A stretch of DNA of 64,000 nucleotides from a virus. Position numbers and translations under genes: made by a program. The notes beneath the pieces are model-generated. The model did no database searches. It was not told where the DNA came from and saw only the letters and a list, made by a program, of their open reading frames with translations. The stretch is from positions 48,474 to 112,473 of the IMG/VR virus record IMGVR_UViG_3300025093_000013. One strand, 5' to 3'. Within the stretch, counting starts at the first letter, position 1. Every line of letters begins with the position of its first letter. This document shows positions 45,213-55,066 of the stretch, piece by piece.

Positions 45213-48200
45213 ATGGTATCGGTATTTCAAGACTGCTTTAGAAGAATATTCTCTTACCAGGGGACAGGACCAGACGCGCCTGATCCTGGGGCAGGAACTG
45301 ACCCTGATGACTGCATAGATAATGATCCTACATGTTGCGCTCAGAATCCAAACGATCCTGACTGCGACGATGATACTGGTGGTGATGATCCTTGTTTAGA
45401 TGTTGTAAGTCTATACGGTTGTGGTGATGAGAGACCTTGTGCTGACACAGGTTGTTGTGAGGGAAATGTCCCAATAATTCAGAATATCACCAGAGGACAA
45501 CTCAACGCTCAGTATGGAATACCCTGTGATGCATCCTTAGAGGGTTGTGTTGATATTGGAGGGCAGAAATACCACCTAGATGCTTGCAACGAATCCTGTT
45601 GCCCTAGCAAGCCTTGTGGGTTTATTCAGTGTGCAGCATCTCAAGATGGTTGCGACCAAACTGATGCAGATGGTTGCTGTGAAGATTATCCGCCTCCTTT
45701 CCACATAGCCCAAGATGAAGTATGTGCAGAGTTTGAGGGGGCGGCTGAACAATACTTTGGAAGGGAGCTTTACTTAAGTGTAGAGCAGTGTGTTGCTGAT
45801 GGATGTATTAGTGACGAAACCTGTCAATATTGGCAATGTACAGCTTTAGATCAATCAGAGAATCTAACGGAATGTACCATAGTAAATCCTACTTTAGTTG
45901 ATCTTGGTGTAACTGATTGCGAGGACGCCCCTGATGAAATACAGTACAACGGTAGTCCTGCCTATAAAAGTAAAGATGATTGCAATGCAACATATCCTTG
46001 TTGCCCTATGCCCGTCTACTACCAATGTGACACTGAGTCTCAATCAACTAAGTGCGGGACATGTAATCAGTATACACAGCCAGGATCTTGTGATCTTGTA
46101 ATTCGTCCCGATATATTTGCTGATCAAGCTAGTTGTGATGCAGAGTGTCCAGGCACAACAGAAGTATACATATGTAACAATCCAGAACAAGGTTTCTGTG
46201 ATACTGTTAGTGATTTCTGTACTGCTGATGATCCTTTAGGTAATGGAACTAATTACTTCCTAGAGTCAGGAGCTTGTAATGCTACATGTTGCGAACCTGC
46301 TACTTATTGGTACTGCCCTGTAGGTATTGAAGGAGGGCAGTGTCAAAGCTATGTCGATGATGATTGTATCATAGACTCAGGAAATGCAGGTCCTAACGGA
46401 GAGAGGGTCTTTAAGACAAAACAGGCTTGCGAAAAAAGCCAACAAACTTATTGTTGCGAAGTAGAGCCCTCGAAAGACAACTACACAAATATAAATTGTG
46501 AATTTAATGATGGTAATTGTGTAACTACAGGTGAATGTGCTACTCCTGATAATGTAGATGTTGTATTTACTGACCTTGTAGAATGCTCACAATCAGTTTT
46601 GGACTGTCAAGATTGTTATGATGAACCTGTAGGACAATCTCTCACTGAAGTAATAGCTGCTAGGCTACAGTTCGCTTACGATGGCGGTAATAGCATTGAG
46701 ACTTACTACTGCCCAGGAGAGACCACAAGAACCCTTAGCATATCATCAAGAAATGCACTAGGTCCTAATTTATCGGATGATCCTTCTTACAGTAATTTAG
46801 AAGATTTCCAACTACTTATAAATGGAAATGTAATAGAGACAGAGGTTGTAGGCATTGATCTAACTTGGACATACGAGATAACTTTAACCTCTGGGCCTTT
46901 TACTTTGAACTATGAGTTTAAGGATCAGTGTGGGACTGTAGTGGCTGCCATTCCAGTTAACTATACTCCAGTTTCTTGTCTAGACTCGTTAGGATCTTTT
47001 CAAGAGTGTTTAAGTCTCAATTCCACCCCAGACCATCCTTTTACATATCCTTGTGCCACTGATCCTTGCGACAGCCCTTTCTCTAGTGATTTCCCAGAGT
47101 GTGATACTGGCGGTGGAGGTGGAGGATCTGGTCCTATACAAGGACAAGGCACTCCAAGGGATCCTCTTAAGGATACTGACTCAGCCGCCCCAGGCATTCT
47201 TAACAGTCCAGGGGTGAACTACCTCAGGGAGATGAACAGGGTTATTAAGACTCCTAAAATCCTTGATGTCTTAGGTAACGATGAGTTTGTAAGAGCCCAG
47301 AGTGCGTTCACGCCCATGTACAACGATAAGCATCTAACCATCTTCTCCGATCAAGTACATGCTTCTATTTGGGCTGTGATGAACATTGATACTGAGCCTG
47401 AAGCCACAGAGAGGGCGTTTGATGATGTGTCTCTTAATTACATTTACAGGAGCCTCAATGATAATCTAAAAAAACGAATAGATTTACTTGAGGATTATGA
47501 CGGTAAGCCTTTGAGACCTAAGATTCTTAGAAGAATTAGGATATTACTATTTGAGGGCAGACTTGATGAGTTTGATGAGCAGGGTCTTTTCAGTATGAAT
47601 ACTGTTCACGATAAGACCTCAAGATCAAACAATATATCCAATGAGAACAACCTTGTAGATCTTGTAAACAGAAAAGCCAAGCCTCTCAACCCTGATGTTT
47701 ATGGTGGGTTCAATAAAGAGAGGATGAAGATTTGGAAGACAGTGGCTACGGATCTAGAAAAAGCTATCGCTTATGTTGATACAGACTCAGTTCTTAGGTT
47801 CATAGACATTAAGCAAGACGATAGTTACGAGATCTTAGACTCTAGTGGGGATGCTACTACAAAGTATATTAATGAAGGAGACTTCATTACATACTACAAA
47901 ACTGACGGGTCTAGAGGATTCCTCGACCTTGATACCTTAATTGAGCAAGCGGTTGTATTTGATTTTGAGGATTTGAGAAAAGCATTTGGTATCGTAAACG
48001 AAGATTATGCTACGGTGCTTTCTGTTTCTAGTGATGAGAATTCGTTCGTAGAGGAAGAATACTCTCTAAGCGATGCGAGACAGGATTTCTACTTCTTTAA
48101 ACTAGAGGTTAGCACACTTGAAGATGTATCTAGGACCAACCCCCTGGTAAGGATATCAAAAGCAAACTATAAGTTGGTTACTGATGCCGATGAGATCAAC

Positions 48201-49025
48201 GAGTGGATTGAGTACAAGCCTTGGCCCTACATGCATTTCAATATGGAGGCCAGTGATCCTTTCTTCGACCACATGTTAGATACGAGTAATATGACTGCTG
48301 AGTTCAAGGACATCAGCTTTGATAAGATTCAAGGATCAACAGATGATGTCCCAGTAATACCCAGAAGAATCCCTTGGCACATCGTTCTTATCCCAACTGA
48401 CAGGACAAGGTTCTTAATTGGATCTGGTAAGTCTAAGCTAACTGGCTATGGAAGTAGAAAAGCCGTGTTCCGACTATCTCCTGATAGAACCCAAACTTCA
48501 CAACGATGGGATCCTGAAATATTTAATGAGAAGGGTACAGATTTCTTCGGAGGTGTCGATCCTAGACAAGAATCAAAAAGTATCAAGGTAGAATACGATA
48601 GCTCAAAGCTTAAATCTGTAAGGAAATCTTACAAGAATGGTTCTGAAAAGCTTCCTAGAAAGCCTAGCGCAGCAAGACAACTATTCAAAGCAATCAGAGA
48701 CGCCAAGGCTGATGATAATAACTTTATCGATGAGGCTAAGACGAGAGTTGAATGGGGGTCAGTATTCAAGAACCTAACTCCAAACGAGCGCAAAACCCTC
48801 TACAGCGATATCGAGGACTATGATAAGAAAAGAGATCAGATAGCAACAAACACTTTTGCAACTAGCGAAACGGTTAGGGAACGCTTTGTACAAATAACCG
48901 AAGTATTTGATAAGGGCCTGAACAATGTTGATGATTACGACCCACCCCCAGTCAAGAAAAGAGAACGGGCTGTGAAAATTGAGGAGCCTGAAGGTGGCGC
49001 TGAAACACCCGAAATATTACCATGA
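45213..49025 (+). CDS. Large protein with Cys-rich modular N-half and Cys-free C-half, probably virion-associated
   Basis: About 61 Cys (hand count) before the GGGGGG linker near 47110 and none after; lies in the tail operon. Confidence 0.8.
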   Translation: MVSVFQDCFRRIFSYQGTGPDAPDPGAGTDPDDCIDNDPTCCAQNPNDPDCDDDTGGDDPCLDVVSLYGCGDERPCADTGCCEGNVPIIQNITRGQLNAQYGIPCDASLEGCVDIGGQKYHLDACNESCCPSKPCGFIQCAASQDGCDQTDADGCCEDYPPPFHIAQDEVCAEFEGAAEQYFGRELYLSVEQCVADGCISDETCQYWQCTALDQSENLTECTIVNPTLVDLGVTDCEDAPDEIQYNGSPAYKSKDDCNATYPCCPMPVYYQCDTESQSTKCGTCNQYTQPGSCDLVIRPDIFADQASCDAECPGTTEVYICNNPEQGFCDTVSDFCTADDPLGNGTNYFLESGACNATCCEPATYWYCPVGIEGGQCQSYVDDDCIIDSGNAGPNGERVFKTKQACEKSQQTYCCEVEPSKDNYTNINCEFNDGNCVTTGECATPDNVDVVFTDLVECSQSVLDCQDCYDEPVGQSLTEVIAARLQFAYDGGNSIETYYCPGETTRTLSISSRNALGPNLSDDPSYSNLEDFQLLINGNVIETEVVGIDLTWTYEITLTSGPFTLNYEFKDQCGTVVAAIPVNYTPVSCLDSLGSFQECLSLNSTPDHPFTYPCATDPCDSPFSSDFPECDTGGGGGGSGPIQGQGTPRDPLKDTDSAAPGILNSPGVNYLREMNRVIKTPKILDVLGNDEFVRAQSAFTPMYNDKHLTIFSDQVHASIWAVMNIDTEPEATERAFDDVSLNYIYRSLNDNLKKRIDLLEDYDGKPLRPKILRRIRILLFEGRLDEFDEQGLFSMNTVHDKTSRSNNISNENNLVDLVNRKAKPLNPDVYGGFNKERMKIWKTVATDLEKAIAYVDTDSVLRFIDIKQDDSYEILDSSGDATTKYINEGDFITYYKTDGSRGFLDLDTLIEQAVVFDFEDLRKAFGIVNEDYATVLSVSSDENSFVEEEYSLSDARQDFYFFKLEVSTLEDVSRTNPLVRISKANYKLVTDADEINEWIEYKPWPYMHFNMEASDPFFDHMLDTSNMTAEFKDISFDKIQGSTDDVPVIPRRIPWHIVLIPTDRTRFLIGSGKSKLTGYGSRKAVFRLSPDRTQTSQRWDPEIFNEKGTDFFGGVDPRQESKSIKVEYDSSKLKSVRKSYKNGSEKLPRKPSAARQLFKAIRDAKADDNNFIDEAKTRVEWGSVFKNLTPNERKTLYSDIEDYDKKRDQIATNTFATSETVRERFVQITEVFDKGLNNVDDYDPPPVKKRERAVKIEEPEGGAETPEILP

Positions 49026-49381: not shown

Positions 49382-49879
49382 ATGAACAGAGATCAATTAA
49401 GAGAAGCCGTACTCGGCACCTCAGCCTGGAAGAAGGCTGGTTTACTTACAGAGTCCGTTGCTCCCGTTCAGGAGCAAGAGGTCATCGAAGAAGCTAAGGC
49501 CGAGGAGACTGCTCCTGAGGCTCACACTTGCCCTCTCTGCGAGTCCACCCTTGAGGGTGAGCTTTCCGACGAGGTTCTTCTTGAGCACGCCGAGCAAATG
49601 CTAGGCGTCTTCCAAGAGGCAGAGCAACTTCTCGCTGAGGCCGAAGAGGCCGAGGAAGGCGAGGTTGTTGAAGAAGAGGAGGAGGCCGAAGAGGTCGATC
49701 TTCTTGAGGGTCTTAACGATGATCAAATCGAAGCTATCGTTGAATTCGTTGAGGGTTTGAGAACGGATGAGAAATTCGATCTAAAAACACAGAACCAAGC
49801 TGGGAAAAACGACGAACGACTCGTAGCAGCAGGGAAAAGATCTAAGTACGCCCCTAAAGGCTCTAAGTTAAATCCTTGA
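49382..49879 (+). CDS. Acidic prohead core-like protein with CPLC...H motif
   Basis: First gene of the head operon; Glu-rich; LRE/LTE/IEE/LLE/FVE sites; basic C-terminal peptide. Confidence 0.7.
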   Translation: MNRDQLREAVLGTSAWKKAGLLTESVAPVQEQEVIEEAKAEETAPEAHTCPLCESTLEGELSDEVLLEHAEQMLGVFQEAEQLLAEAEEAEEGEVVEEEEEAEEVDLLEGLNDDQIEAIVEFVEGLRTDEKFDLKTQNQAGKNDERLVAAGKRSKYAPKGSKLNP

Positions 49880-49896: not shown

Positions 49897-50313
49897 ATGG
49901 CTTCTCTTAAAGAAACAGGTATGGGGATTGGCGATTTTGCTCAAGCTTTGCTTAAGCAAGAGAAGGATAATCCTCAGCCTGTTTCACACAAAGCTCCCGT
50001 GAGGGGCAATGTGCCCGATATAGAGAATGTTCAAGTTCTTCAAGAAGATGTTAACGATGTTCTTGCTAATTCCTTCGGAGTTAGGCGAGATCCTGTACCT
50101 CAGGTCAACCTTCAAGAAGAAAGGAAGAAGCAGATTAAGGAGCAGATTCAAGTTAAGATTAACGAACTGAAGGAGCTTCTTAACGAGCTAGGTGTTACTA
50201 CTGGGACTACGACTGTAGGGAGCCTTGGCGCTCCTAACTACGCTGGAGGAAAAACTTATGAGCCTAATAGATCTGGTAAGAGGAAAAGAGCAGTCGTTAA
50301 ACGAAAAGTCTGA
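49897..50313 (+). CDS. Head-associated protein carrying a copy of the MCP N-terminal motif
   Basis: LQE and LNE sites; TGTTTVGSLG identical to the MCP segment. Confidence 0.75.
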   Translation: MASLKETGMGIGDFAQALLKQEKDNPQPVSHKAPVRGNVPDIENVQVLQEDVNDVLANSFGVRRDPVPQVNLQEERKKQIKEQIQVKINELKELLNELGVTTGTTTVGSLGAPNYAGGKTYEPNRSGKRKRAVVKRKV

Positions 50314-50695
50314 ACGATACCCTAGTGGTAGAGGTAGTTACAAAAGAAAGAATGTAACTAGCTCTCGTAAGAGTAAAGTTCCAATTTACGACACCATCAA
50401 GGCTGCTCTAAAGAAGACTAGCCCTGGTACTATTTTCTCTACAAAAGGCTCATATAGAATGTATGTCACAACCTCTGGGGGTTGGGGCAAGAGTAAACAA
50501 CAAAGAGTTTCTGGTAGAACAGCTAAAGGCTTTACACCAGGGAGTTCAACCCCAGGTTCTAGTTGGAAAAGCATTAAAAGCCATGCTGCTAGAACAAGAG
50601 TAAAGCATGGTGGCGCTACTGCTGGTAGGTTGAAGGCAGCGGCTCGAAGAAAAAAGGATCAACCAAAGAAGTACACAGCTAAAAGGAAAAAGTGA
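50258..50695 (+). CDS. Highly basic putative internal head (DNA-binding) protein
   Basis: ATG 50258 with GGAGG at 50245 (better than the track start 50225); SLNE then a K/R/S/G-rich body. Confidence 0.75.
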   Translation: MSLIDLVRGKEQSLNEKSERYPSGRGSYKRKNVTSSRKSKVPIYDTIKAALKKTSPGTIFSTKGSYRMYVTTSGGWGKSKQQRVSGRTAKGFTPGSSTPGSSWKSIKSHAARTRVKHGGATAGRLKAAARRKKDQPKKYTAKRKK

Positions 50696-51708
50696 TGTTA
50701 ATAGAAGATGTATTCATTATCGAAAACTTACAGGTCCTCAACGAAGGCAAAGGTGGTCCTATGCGAGTTCGTGGCGTTTTCCAGCGTGCAGACGAGGAGA
50801 ACAACAACAAGCGCATCTACCCCAAGGCTCTCCTTGAGCGTGAGATCAAGAAGCTAGACGAGGCCATGAGAGGTCGCCGTCTTATGGGCGAGCTTGATCA
50901 CCCTCAGCACGACAGCGTTAAGCTTTCAAATGTTTCTCACCTTATCACTAAGCTTGAAGCTAAGGGTAACGAGATTATCGGTGAGGCTGAGATCCTAGAC
51001 ACTCCCATGGGTAAGGTCGCTAAGGCACTTATCGAGGGCGGTGTTCAGGTTGGTATCTCTTCACGCGGTATGGGCACTCTCTCCGAGGGTCAGGACGGTA
51101 AGCGTTATGTCAACGAAGACTTCCGCCTTATCACCTGGGACCTAGTTGCTGATCCTTCTACCCGTGGTGCTTTCCCTTCTCTTGCTGAGTCCCGTCAAAG
51201 CGTACTCGTAGAAGAGATCATGAACGATGTTCTTCCTCGCGTGACCAAGGAGAAGGTTTTCGCTACTCTTCTTACTGAGAGCCTTAACGAGGCCAAGATG
51301 AAGAAGGCTAAGAAAGCTCCTGCCAAGAAAGGTGGCAAGAAGTTCCCTGACCTCAGTGGTGATGGTAAGGTTACCTTCAAGGACATTCTTATGGGCAGAG
51401 GTGTGATCGGTAAGGGCGAGAGAAAAGATGAAATGCAAAGCCCAGCCGCCATCCAAGCCAACAAAGAAAGAATGCGTAGAAAGATGGCAGGCATGGGACC
51501 CTCTGCTAGAAGAGCATACAAAGCTAGACATGGCATTGCGGACTCCACTCTCTTCTCTCGCGTTGGCTCTGTTCTTTCAGAGATGAACGCCCCTGAGAAG
51601 GCAAAACGAGTTATGAAGCTTTCTCCTAAGAGTCAGGCTGAACTTCATAGAAGAAAGATGGAAAGAGAAGGAAAGGATATTTACGGTAAGCCTAAGAAAA
51701 AATCATAA
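50692..51708 (+). CDS. gp21: Prohead protease (T4 gp21-like) with a long basic C-terminal extension
   Basis: GVFQRADEENNNKRIYP, GELDHP, VSHLI, ILDTPMGK, GISSRGMG, DLVADPST. Confidence 0.97.
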   Translation: MMLIEDVFIIENLQVLNEGKGGPMRVRGVFQRADEENNNKRIYPKALLEREIKKLDEAMRGRRLMGELDHPQHDSVKLSNVSHLITKLEAKGNEIIGEAEILDTPMGKVAKALIEGGVQVGISSRGMGTLSEGQDGKRYVNEDFRLITWDLVADPSTRGAFPSLAESRQSVLVEEIMNDVLPRVTKEKVFATLLTESLNEAKMKKAKKAPAKKGGKKFPDLSGDGKVTFKDILMGRGVIGKGERKDEMQSPAAIQANKERMRRKMAGMGPSARRAYKARHGIADSTLFSRVGSVLSEMNAPEKAKRVMKLSPKSQAELHRRKMEREGKDIYGKPKKKS

Positions 51709-51762
51709 AAAACGAGCACACCTATAATAACTGTATAGATAACAATAGATTGGAGTACAATC

Positions 51763-52386
51763 ATGGATAAAAAGAAAATAGAAGACATTGCTCAGTTACT
51801 TCCTGAGGGCATCACCGAGGAAACGATCACTGAAATCGCTGGTGTTATGCAGGGTTTAATTGAGGAAAGAGTACAGGAGGAAGTTAGCGATCTTACCGAC
51901 AAGGTTTTCGCTTACCTATCCATGAAGCGTCAGCAGATTCAGGAAGCCGCCCTTGAGGAGCTTCATGAGTCTAACGATGTTTACCGTGACGCACAAAGAT
52001 TCCGTGAGCTTATGGGCTTCATGGCCGTCGAGTTCCGCCCTGAGCATGTTGATGCTGAGAGTGAGAAGAGACTTGCCGAGGCATCTGAGCTTGTCGAGGA
52101 CAACGAAGTCCTCGCCCGTGAGCTTTCCGAGTCACTCAAAGAGCAAGAGCGCCTTGCTAAGACAATCCAACTGCTAGAGTCTAAGGTCTCAAAGCGTGAG
52201 TCAGAAGTTGCTTCTCTCACCGAGAGCGTTAACGCTTTAGCAGAGGAAAAAGAGACTATGTTGTTCGAGTCTACCGAGCAAGCTGTAGTCGTTACTAACA
52301 ATGTAGACGAAGAGGTTGAGGATCAAAAACTGGAAAGTATCGGAAATGAGTTCTTAACCGAAGAAATGCTCAAGCTTATGCGATGA
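51763..52386 (+). CDS. Prohead scaffold (gp22-like)
   Basis: Acidic coiled coil between protease and MCP; LTDKVFAYL; GGAG RBS, TAGATA at 51736. Confidence 0.8.
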   Translation: MDKKKIEDIAQLLPEGITEETITEIAGVMQGLIEERVQEEVSDLTDKVFAYLSMKRQQIQEAALEELHESNDVYRDAQRFRELMGFMAVEFRPEHVDAESEKRLAEASELVEDNEVLARELSESLKEQERLAKTIQLLESKVSKRESEVASLTESVNALAEEKETMLFESTEQAVVVTNNVDEEVEDQKLESIGNEFLTEEMLKLMR

Positions 52387-52411
52387 GCAATAACTAAAAG
52401 GATTTGTAGTT

Positions 52412-53929
52412 ATGGATTTAATGGAAATGGGTGCCAGTGACGACCTCGTACAGAAGTGGGGTCCTGCGCTAGACGGCATCGAAAATGATTATACTAAGAG
52501 AGTAACTGCACAACTTCTAGAAAACCAACTTAAGAGTGCCCAGCAAGAAAGCATCGATGAAGCTGCTGTTGGAACTGGTACTACTACCGTTGGTAGCCTC
52601 GGCACTTTCCAGAAGTTTGCTTTCCCTCTCGTTCGTCGGGTCTTCCCCGAACTAATCGCTAACCAACTCGTTAGCGTTCAGCCTATGAGCGGTCCCGTCT
52701 CACAGGTCTTCTACCTTGGTGCAGCTAGAGCTTACGGTTCTGACCGTGAGACTATCTACAGCAAGTACAACCTTACCTACAGAGGTCTAACCACTGGTAA
52801 GGTTCAGCCCACTACCACAGGTATTGATGTTGATGCTGGAACCTCCCCCACCTCTCAGGAACTAGGTGGTTCTGCTCTTTCAGAAGCCTTTGCTGACGGT
52901 AGCAACATGGCTTCCGCTATTGCTAATTGGCCTACTACTGCCCTTGCTCAAGGTTGGTCAGTCTCTGCTGGTGAGAAGCTTACTGGCACTGCAATTCCTG
53001 AAGTTACCCTTCAGATCGAGCAGCAGCCTGTTGTCGCTCGTACCAAGAAGATGCGTGCTCTCTGGACCCTTGAGGCTTCTCAGGACCTTAGAGCTTACCA
53101 CAACCTAGATCTTGAGCGCGAGCTTACTGATCTACTTGGTAAGGAGATTCGCCTTGAGGTTGACCGTGAGCTTATCGAGAACCTTCGTGGTCTTGCTTAC
53201 GACATCAGTGGCACCGCTGGTAGCCTCTTCAAGAAAGAGTACCTTGATCAAGCCAGCAACCAAGGTGGCATGGGTAACTTTACCAGCCCAGGCACTGCTG
53301 TCGATTCACAGTTTGGTGATTTCCTTTTCAAAGGAACTGACGGCACTGATCTTGGTCTTCCTACTTCCACCGCTGGATCCAACAAGAATGTTATCCTTGT
53401 AGACTTCGAGTCAAGTGCTCTTAACTTCGCTCCTCGTCATGTCGGTGATGTGTACGCAAACCTTCTTGCTGCCATCAACTTCGCCTCACAGGATATCTTC
53501 AAGACCACTCAGCGTGGTGCTGGTAACTGGCTTCTTTGCTCCCCCGTTGTTGCAACAATCCTTGAGACTGCTGCAAAGCTAACTGGTGGCATCGAGGCTG
53601 CTGATGGCCCAACTAACTTCGGTCCTGGCACTATCCAGTTCCGTGGTAAGTTCATGGGTCGTTACGACCTCTTCGTTGATCCTCTTTACCCAGAGGGCGA
53701 GATCATGGTCGGTTACAAGGGTGGTAACCCCATGGACGGTGGCTTCGTGTATGCTCCATACATCCCCTTCCAGGCTCTACCCACCATCACCGATCCTGAG
53801 AGCTTCCAGCCCAGAAAGGGCATCCTTACCCGTTACGGTAAGGCTGCTGTTGCACCAGCTTCCAGATTCTACAGAATCATTAGACTCGTAGGCGCTGATA
53901 GCTTGTTCAACCCCTTCCTTGAGAAGTGA
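52412..53929 (+). CDS. gp23: Major capsid protein (T4 gp23-like)
   Basis: LVQKW, TAQLLENQ, PLVRRVFPELIA, VQPMSGP, WTLEASQDLRAYH, EVDRE, YAPYIP, DPESFQPRKGILTRYG. Confidence 0.98.
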   Translation: MDLMEMGASDDLVQKWGPALDGIENDYTKRVTAQLLENQLKSAQQESIDEAAVGTGTTTVGSLGTFQKFAFPLVRRVFPELIANQLVSVQPMSGPVSQVFYLGAARAYGSDRETIYSKYNLTYRGLTTGKVQPTTTGIDVDAGTSPTSQELGGSALSEAFADGSNMASAIANWPTTALAQGWSVSAGEKLTGTAIPEVTLQIEQQPVVARTKKMRALWTLEASQDLRAYHNLDLERELTDLLGKEIRLEVDRELIENLRGLAYDISGTAGSLFKKEYLDQASNQGGMGNFTSPGTAVDSQFGDFLFKGTDGTDLGLPTSTAGSNKNVILVDFESSALNFAPRHVGDVYANLLAAINFASQDIFKTTQRGAGNWLLCSPVVATILETAAKLTGGIEAADGPTNFGPGTIQFRGKFMGRYDLFVDPLYPEGEIMVGYKGGNPMDGGFVYAPYIPFQALPTITDPESFQPRKGILTRYGKAAVAPASRFYRIIRLVGADSLFNPFLEK

Positions 53930-54009: not shown

Positions 54010-54216
54010 ATGAAGTATAAATACAGGAGCACTTGTAGGTTCCCAGTCTTGCTTGAAATATCAAACGAGTTGGTACAGGTAAGACCGAATCAGGTTGTTG
54101 AGAGTGATACTGAACTTAAGTACAGTATGCTCAAAGAAATAGTAAGTGAGCCTGTAAAACCCAGACGAACTAGAAGAAAGAAGGAGGACTCAGATGGTCG
54201 CGGTCGTATATCCTAA
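54010..54216 (+). CDS. Small hypothetical protein before neck genes
   Basis: TATATA at 53999 just upstream; basic tail; overlaps the gp13 start. Confidence 0.65.
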   Translation: MKYKYRSTCRFPVLLEISNELVQVRPNQVVESDTELKYSMLKEIVSEPVKPRRTRRKKEDSDGRGRIS

Positions 54217-55066
54217 GGTTACTGGTTATGGGAACAGTTTTACAAATGTCGCCAGCGACAAGTTAGGTGAACACAATCCTCCTTTTGCAGGAGAGATAGA
54301 TTTAGAGAACCTTAATAAGACCAAGCAGTCTGATGTAGTCGAGTTCTCTAACTTCGAGGAGCAAATAAGAGATTATGTTCTGGCTGCTCTTGGTCATCCA
54401 GTCGTAAGAGTTGAGCTAACAGACCATCAACTTAGACTTTGCATGGATGAGGCTATCACAGAGCTTGATTACCACGCTCCTCACTTCACAAGACAATTCG
54501 CTGCGTTCTGCACTTCTGCTAATTACAATGTGTATGCGATCCCTCCTTACATCTTGAAGAACCTTACTTATGTTACCTTCAAGAAAAGCCTGCTCTCCAT
54601 TCAGTCCCAGGCAGGAACACTTGAGTTCGATTTCTTCATCAAGTATTTCCAAGACAACTACCTATTTGATAACTTTTCAATAGGTGATTACTACCTTCTA
54701 CAGTCTACCCTAGAAACTACACGAAGGGTTCTGAGCCAAGACGGTGGATGGGACATTATCGATGGTCAGTTCTTGCAGCTATACCCCATCCCTTCTGTGG
54801 GTGATGTAGCCATCTTGGAATTCAGAGGATTAAACTCTAGGACCATGACACCTAAGATGCAGAACTGGCTGCAAAAATATTCAACTGCCTGTGCAAAGAT
54901 GCTTCTAGGCCAGATCAGAGGTAAGTTTGCTGTAGTCCCAGGTCCAGGGGGAGGCACTCAACTAAATGGTGCAGCCCTTGTACAAGAAGCAATGCAAGAA
55001 AAGCAAGCTCTGAAAGACGAGCTAATGAACGAGGTTGAAGAACCTCCCATGTTTACTACAGGCTGA
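54194..55066 (+). CDS. gp13: Neck protein gp13-like
   Basis: LGHPVVRVELTDHQL...DEA, LGQIRGKF, PGPGGGTQLNG, PPMFTTG. Confidence 0.9.
   Translation: MVAVVYPKVTGYGNSFTNVASDKLGEHNPPFAGEIDLENLNKTKQSDVVEFSNFEEQIRDYVLAALGHPVVRVELTDHQLRLCMDEAITELDYHAPHFTRQFAAFCTSANYNVYAIPPYILKNLTYVTFKKSLLSIQSQAGTLEFDFFIKYFQDNYLFDNFSIGDYYLLQSTLETTRRVLSQDGGWDIIDGQFLQLYPIPSVGDVAILEFRGLNSRTMTPKMQNWLQKYSTACAKMLLGQIRGKFAVVPGPGGGTQLNGAALVQEAMQEKQALKDELMNEVEEPPMFTTG

Follow-up and report, generated by a model that had tools for sequence, protein, structure and literature searches.

Why should a small protein that is not itself a capsid protein carry, residue for residue, the beginning of the mature major capsid protein of its own virus? 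The question is raised by a 64,000-nucleotide stretch of viral DNA (the window; positions 48,474 to 112,473 of IMG/VR virus record IMGVR_UViG_3300025093_000013), which holds a T4-type head module on its + strand; the viral record from which it comes comprises 112,473 bp and is rated as complete, and all genome-wide searches refer to it. Within this module, a 138-aa open reading frame (ORF) upstream of the prohead protease gene encodes an exact copy of ten residues found just behind the predicted maturation site of the capsid protein, as had been pointed out in a first-pass annotation made from the sequence without database searches. The features on which the argument turns are the following.

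49897–50313, + strand: 138-aa ORF, carrier of the copy, predicted to be helical and prohead-core-like (called as an ORF; part of the conserved head module in relatives)
50179–50187, + strand: L95-N96-E97, where the head protease is predicted to cut and the last helix ends (conservation and the T4 gp21 rule)
50188–50229, + strand: first 14 residues of the predicted released peptide, the copy of the capsid N-terminus (exact 10-mer at 50200–50229)
50251–50310, + strand: K/R-rich end of the predicted peptide (translation)
50692–51708, + strand: prohead protease, Peptidase_S77, T4 gp21 type, the presumed processing enzyme (PF03420, 2.5e-26; phrog_207, 4e-53)
51763–52386, + strand: scaffold-like protein, positional analogue of gp22 (position and synteny in relatives; no Pfam or PHROG family match above threshold)
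52412–53929, + strand: major capsid protein, Gp23 family (PF07068, 1.2e-78; T4 gp23* chains, ~1e-33)
52553–52561, + strand: I48-D49-E50, predicted capsid maturation cut site (E50 invariant in 30 capsid sequences)
52562–52603, + strand: the 14 residues with which the predicted mature capsid protein begins (exact 10-mer at 52574–52603)

In the small protein, L95-N96-E97 is followed by LGVT and then by TGTTTVGSLG, and in the capsid protein I48-D49-E50 is followed by AAVG and then by the same ten residues. The 10-mer is offset by four residues from the Glu of the L/I-x-E site in both proteins, and, counted from the residue after this Glu, 11 of 14 residues are identical. At the DNA level, the third base differs in six of the ten shared codons. 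The coordinates of the pair, the spacing from the Glu and the DNA quoted in the first-pass annotation were all found to be exact on the sequence, as was its remark that most third codon positions differ; its conclusion that the match is kept at the protein level agrees with both the co-variation in relatives and the codon analysis described below. Behind the predicted cut, residues 98–138 of the small protein comprise nine K/R and a single E, the last 20 residues being strongly basic.

A match by chance was rejected by a genome-wide word search and by shuffles. The six-frame translation of the 112-kb genome yields 1032 stop-to-stop frames of at least 40 aa (1031 besides that of the capsid protein itself), and no word common to the capsid protein and another frame is longer than the 10-mer, the runner-up having a length of 6. 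A relaxed pattern of the motif matches in two places only, the small protein and the capsid protein, and among 200,000 shuffles of the small protein a 7-mer shared with the capsid protein arose in 0.0145%.

The small protein has no match in the GenBank phage collection and none in Pfam or PHROG, and the ESM Atlas gave no lead; its homologues are 223 database proteins, all annotated as 'hypothetical' and none with a Pfam domain. The capsid protein, in turn, reaches less than 35% identity with any entry of that collection. Loci were collected from IMG/VR and metagenome contigs (69 for the capsid protein; for the small protein 10 from IMG/VR, 62 from metagenomes and 12 of a further clade), and the gene order is identical across them. 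Throughout the family the layout is constant: an N-terminal part with conserved G-D-F-A and S-F-G is followed by a long helix that has (L/I/M/V)-x-E at its end, then by the G/T-rich motif and a K/R-rich end, and the basic tail is present in all orthologues. All of 18 orthologues have E97, as do at least 90% of 55, with the P3 position of the site always L, I, M or V, and the most conserved columns of the tail are T105, G108 and G111. In the capsid family (30 sequences) E50, T58 and G64 are invariant and T59 is nearly so. With regard to the two proteins as substrates of a head protease, the genome encodes an S77 protease (PF03420, 2.5e-26), and E97 and E50 are the invariant residues.

Structure prediction with AlphaFold2 (55-sequence alignment) gave helices at residues 11–24, 49–60 and 72–98 of the small protein, a disordered tail from residue 99 and no globular fold (predicted TM-score 0.23). 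As modelled, the small protein is helical and scaffold-like, with the predicted cut site exactly at the end of its last helix. The corresponding model of the capsid protein, built from a shallow alignment, is too poor for use (mean predicted confidence, pLDDT, 42.6); in this low-confidence model, I48-D49-E50 lies at the end of a predicted propeptide helix (26–45).

Does the copy follow the capsid protein when the latter changes? The comparison of the two motifs in related genomes, which the first-pass annotation had proposed, was made on 39 unique pairs of small protein and capsid protein and five from a deep clade, with permutation on 42 unique pairs, and it found the motifs to be shared as well as co-varying. 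Identical runs of 6–12 residues occur in 12 distinct pairs, and even where the identity of the capsid protein to that of the window is down to 55–60%, the small protein retains T-T-x-G-x-(L/I)-G as a core after its Glu. When each small-protein tail was scored against every capsid motif and its own pairing was compared with permuted pairings, the own-versus-other score reached z=5.0 in the close clade; for the 16 representatives left by de-replication at 80% identity it was z=4.2 (p=4e-5), and over all 42 unique pairs z=6.2 (p<=2e-5). Parallel changes are seen in at least six lineages. In loci L017, L018 and L110, V is changed to Y together with a P and an I in both proteins (YGPG...SIG), the small protein and the capsid protein of L017 both carrying YGPGTTTVGSIG; L012 has V changed to I in both, L105 and L107 have TTTTGALG in both, L115 has an N ahead of (I/L)-G in both, L026 an M in both, L014 and L100 an I in both, and the departure of the window pair itself from the common form is a T in both proteins. 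These parallel changes are independent events. A 'TQ' variant common to both proteins in one deep clade is suggestive at the level of the clade but not significant when tested pair by pair (p=0.18).

Such a likeness could also have been maintained or left behind by processes acting on DNA. Gene conversion was rejected, as the identity of codons within the shared peptides (32 of 103, with 38 expected from codon usage) is no higher than codon usage predicts and each gene has its own codon signature: across orthologues, the V-G of the motif is encoded by 'gta ggg' in the small gene and by 'gtt ggt' in the capsid gene, the codons of the co-varying Y-G-P differ at all three third positions between the genes, and the motif is conserved with many synonymous changes. 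These signatures indicate that each locus has evolved on its own DNA lineage, with identity of the amino acids restored by selection. Rejected as well was the idea that part of the capsid gene, or its propeptide, had been duplicated. An hhalign comparison of the two families aligned only the 12 columns of the motif (E 7.5e-5; capsid columns 54–65), and nothing aligned in a profile comparison after removal of the motif; it is thus the motif alone that carries the BLASTP alignment, which stretches over capsid residues 1–64 and hence the whole propeptide. An overlapping gene as the source of constraint was rejected too, since the next gene overlaps the last 56 nt of the small ORF and not the motif.

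Which element of the capsid protein is copied can be read from its alignment with T4. By HMMER, capsid residues 60–111 align with residues 20–69 of the mature T4 gp23* chain, and the motif corresponds to about residues 80–89 of T4 gp23. What the first-pass annotation called the N-arm thus requires a more precise name: by this alignment the copied stretch precedes the conserved arm on its N-terminal side and falls within the N-fist, an element of 25 residues, towards the C-terminal end of the latter. The N-fist touches two subunits of its own capsomer and two of the neighbouring one (PMC9958956). In the cleaved but unexpanded T4 head, the gp23 region 66–105 is disordered and internal, and it moves to the outer surface upon expansion; residues 11–20 of gp24* reach onto the neighbouring hexamer, and mutations in the N-terminal region of gp23 alter the length of the head, contacts with the scaffolding core being the probable cause (PMC9546572). 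Cleavage by T4 gp21 after L/I-x-E, on which the first-pass annotation relied, matches the published rule, which as described concerns the P side only (PMC9026906). In T4-type gp24, residues 11–20 are STTTNSNSIG, directly after L-R-E, so that the capsid family has long had, immediately behind the protease site, a T-rich stretch with (I/L)-G at its end.

A separate resemblance concerns the end of the last helix of the small protein together with the copy (50152–50238) and the first 23 residues of a T4-type gp24 (L079:6144-7427), with K-I-N-E-L, L-x-E, T-T-T and S-(I/L)-G-x-P-N as common elements. By BLASTP it amounts to 9/20 identities with E 0.07 for the pair, which is not significant alone, and part of it is probably coincidence, as K-I-N-E-L is confined to the subclade of the window.

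For the role of the copy we tentatively favour, on the grounds of sequence comparison, a reading in which the small protein supplies a stand-in for the capsid N-terminus; once released by the protease, it would dock at the place of that N-terminus. The small protein would sit in the prohead core as a scaffold-like component, its position and layout resembling those of T4 gp68, and would most likely be cut by the S77 head protease after L95-N96-E97. The cut would free a 41-residue disordered peptide, the first 14 residues of which would imitate the new capsid N-terminus left by the cut after I48-D49-E50, both new N-termini being made by the same protease. The peptide might then dock on neighbouring capsid subunits at the place where the mature capsid N-terminus docks, a role whose T4 equivalents would be the N-fist of gp23* and residues 11–20 of gp24*, and might substitute where the capsid partner is absent, for example next to the portal, with its basic tail free to contact DNA. 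As selection keeps the two copies alike and co-changing, both must fit one common site; docking through a free new N-terminus is favoured by the fact that the copy starts right after the cut in two unrelated carriers, the small protein and T4 gp61.1 (see below), and docking itself by the known docking role of the homologous T4 element. The portal-side version, raised in the first-pass annotation, is an attractive possibility because the portal replaces one penton and thereby removes five capsid N-termini. The 112,473-bp genome has a single gene of the Gp23 family and no gp24-like vertex paralogue, so that the capsid protein probably forms the pentons too.

Several observations weigh against this proposal. 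Among the orthologues of the small protein, the motif stands 0 to 6 residues away from the Glu. In several lineages (L003/L004/L058/L122, L116–L120, L148/L149) the copy is degenerate, so that the match is not indispensable; a better copy elsewhere was not found on four contigs of such lineages, each only 34–59% complete. The permutation tests leave some shared ancestry in. In T4, the capsid protein's N-terminal region is disordered inside the unexpanded head and ends outside (PMC9546572); as the T4 docking site is external, a free internal peptide must follow the same outward path or bind another, internal site, and a simple internal tether for DNA becomes less straightforward, as the T4 element ends on the outer surface after expansion. 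Finally, the phage is uncultured, and we infer the presence of the small protein in the head, its cleavage, its docking site and its role. The interpretation given in the first-pass annotation, a capsid mimic that fills vacant N-terminal sites or tethers DNA to the shell, accordingly stands as far as mimicry under selection is concerned, whereas the specific role is unproven.

Other partners for the copy have to be weighed against the stand-in. The motif might be a handle shared by both proteins for an internal prohead partner before cleavage, either the scaffold or the protease zymogen, with no role after cleavage; in that case the copy would bring the small protein into the core or hold it in place there, or else link core and shell, and the protein would be tied to head-size control, as has been proposed for gp68. 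Co-variation fits any common partner, the carrier is by prediction helical and scaffold-like, the N-terminal region of T4 gp23 is inferred to face inwards and contact the scaffold, with mutations that shift head length (PMC9546572), and the core proteins gp67 and gp68 are tied to head-size control (PMC9026906). We nevertheless consider such a handle unlikely, since the copy starts right after the cut in the small-protein family as well as in T4 gp61.1, which suggests that the new free N-terminus matters, and since the scaffold is 79–98% identical within the close clade while the variable positions of the motif change. Binding to the protease itself, with the motif as an exosite ligand or extended recognition element and the small protein as a competing substrate that times capsid cleavage, is in line with the copy always standing directly behind an L/I-x-E site and with the location of the protease gene between the small-protein and capsid genes. 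This appears improbable in view of the specificity of gp21, described as L/I-x-E on the P side only (PMC9026906), of the best-conserved part of the motif, which spans P5'–P14' and is past the normal substrate groove, of the other predicted substrates in the genome, which lack the motif (the relaxed pattern being found in two places only), and of the catalytic domain of the protease, which is more conserved than the co-varying positions.

The TVGSL core of the motif is identical to that of solved encapsulin peptides (PMC10960027) and is located in a disordered, Gly-rich tail that is basic, which raises the idea of a luminal anchor in the manner of encapsulin cargo peptides: the motif would bind an inner pocket of the P-domain and hold the basic peptide and, through it, the DNA to the shell, and the own N-terminus of the capsid protein would use the same pocket only transiently. 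The resemblance, however, extends over five residues and was found after the fact, V60 is replaced by T, A, C or Q in some clades, the motif lies away from the C-terminus and the homologous T4 segment is disordered inside the unexpanded head, so that an anchor of this kind seems quite unlikely. That the copy has no function at all, being a product of chance in a low-complexity stretch, of recent gene conversion or of a leftover capsid-gene duplication, could draw on the richness of the motif in G and T and on the loss of the resemblance in some lineages, but it is highly improbable given the shuffle and genome-wide controls, a codon identity at or below expectation with separate codon signatures, the conservation of the motif despite many synonymous changes, the parallel non-conservative changes in both proteins and the lack of homology outside the motif.

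The neighbourhood of these genes departs in part from that of T4 and includes four further ORFs.

45213–49025, + strand: Cys-rich ORF, 1270 aa
49022–49306, + strand: PAAR protein
49382–49879, + strand: acidic ORF, 165 aa
50258–50695, + strand: basic ORF, 145 aa

Directly upstream of the core and protease genes stand the Cys-rich ORF and the PAAR protein, and not a portal gene as in T4. Features of the acidic protein are a long run rich in Glu and a C-P-L-C pair; the protein matches the Rad50 zinc hook weakly, under the Pfam cut-off (E 8.5e-4), and recalls T4 gp67 in position and composition, its first ~78 residues being highly conserved in relatives. The very basic protein is read in a different frame from the small ORF and starts with an ATG 56 nt before the latter ends, and both the overlap and the protein are kept in relatives (70–93% identity from residue 1). 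As its first 16 residues end in L-N-E and resemble a capsid-targeting leader cut by the head protease, its product may be an internal protein, ejected or DNA-binding. The S77 protease consists of 338 aa compared with ~212 in T4; the family match covers approximately the first 200 residues and is followed by a K/R-rich extension of ~130 residues, which is variable, as tblastn often aligns only the first 200–230 residues in relatives. Just 3' of the capsid gene, a 68-aa ORF with a basic C-terminus (54010–54216, + strand; 29–93% identity in relatives) overlaps the start of a head-tail adaptor gene (54194–55066).

Among known systems, the closest parallel in design is gp61.1 of T4 itself, a 54-aa protein annotated as hypothetical (NC_000866, 18966–19130). 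It has I-K-E at residues 8–10 and matches gp23 57–93 with 17/37 identical residues (E 6e-9 for the pair), the copy behind I-K-E corresponding to gp23 66–93, and it ends in a charged tail; its 10-residue leader resembles the T4 capsid-targeting sequence. In both gp61.1 and the small protein of the window, a leading part thus precedes an L/I-x-E site, behind which the mature N-terminus of the phage's own capsid protein is copied from the residue after the cut onwards, and a charged tail closes the protein. They differ in the leading part, 10 residues in gp61.1 and a helical part of 97 residues in the window protein, in the length of the copy (~28 and ~14 residues, respectively) and in gene location, with gene 61.1 adjoining the primase gene and the window gene being part of the head module; no homology between the two proteins is detectable (no PHROG match). 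The searchable papers hold nothing on the function of gp61.1 or on a non-capsid mimic of the mature capsid N-terminus, even though T4 assembly is among the best studied. The statement of the first-pass annotation that it knew of no description of the element therefore holds for the searchable papers, but the element is not unique, as gene 61.1 of T4 shows the same design.

Since selection maintains the imitation and makes it evolve in step with the capsid protein, it has the marks of a genuine physical contact, and, as the same design is present in gene 61.1, the idea is testable in a tractable laboratory phage. Should it be confirmed, capsid maturation would gain a further component or regulatory step; the completion of the lattice at positions that break its symmetry might find an explanation, and a natural short tag for the attachment of cargo to T4-type capsids would be available. 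More general still, and on present grounds rather doubtful, is the notion that T4-type phages as a rule encode free stand-in capsid N-termini such as gp61.1 and the window protein, which would be released by the protease and fill lattice sites of symmetry mismatch, such as those around the portal or next to the pentons; if so, they would be a structural component of a textbook virus that has gone unrecognised.

In position, the small protein rather recalls T4 gp67 and gp68, its gene likewise being located just upstream of the protease, scaffold and capsid genes. The order in the window, kept in relatives, is 49897–50313, 50258–50695, protease, scaffold-like protein and capsid protein, and that in T4 is 20-67-68-21-22-23. 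With gp68 it further has in common its size (138 versus 141 aa), L-x-E sites and a K/R-rich C-terminus, and both gp67 and gp68 are cut to fragments by gp21 and linked to head-size control (PMC9026906, PMC9958956). Homology to T4 gp68 was rejected, as hhalign with the 55-sequence family profile gave a probability of 0.3% and E 0.19. The T4-type gp68 of phage ACG-C40, inspected by eye, has no copy of the gp23 N-terminus, none was seen in the head-module translations of cyanophage S-RIM32 and of the 595-kb uncultured phage LR756511, and the whole genome of S-RIM32 holds no second copy of the capsid N-terminus.

With residues 11–20 of T4 gp24* and the N-fist of gp23*, the small protein shares the T-rich stretch ending in (I/L)-G directly behind a protease site. 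In T4 this element docks on neighbouring capsomers after expansion (PMC9546572) and is part of shell proteins with the HK97 fold, whereas here it is found on a non-capsid protein as well. The targeting peptides of family-1 encapsulins are short motifs in the flexible tail of an internal protein, in which a TVGSL core (LTVGSLRR in Myxococcus xanthus, TVGSLIQ in Q. thermotolerans) binds the luminal P-domain of an HK97-fold shell (PMC10960027). The TVGSL of the window is identical to both cores and lies in a disordered tail, with 27 residues after the motif and a V that is variable across clades. In contrast to encapsulins, the shell is here a Gp23-family phage capsid, the motif is not C-terminal, and the shell protein, which the motif would have to bind, bears it too, which is not reported for encapsulin shells. 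A short motif common to two proteins is known from the scaffolding protein of phage 80alpha and CpmB of SaPI1, which have a common C-terminal helix-and-hook and bind the same capsid site (PMC5644958); there, two scaffolds bind the capsid N-arm, while here a core protein and the capsid protein itself share the motif. Proteins inside phage heads that use short motifs for docking or targeting are known, and the small protein would be a further variant among them.

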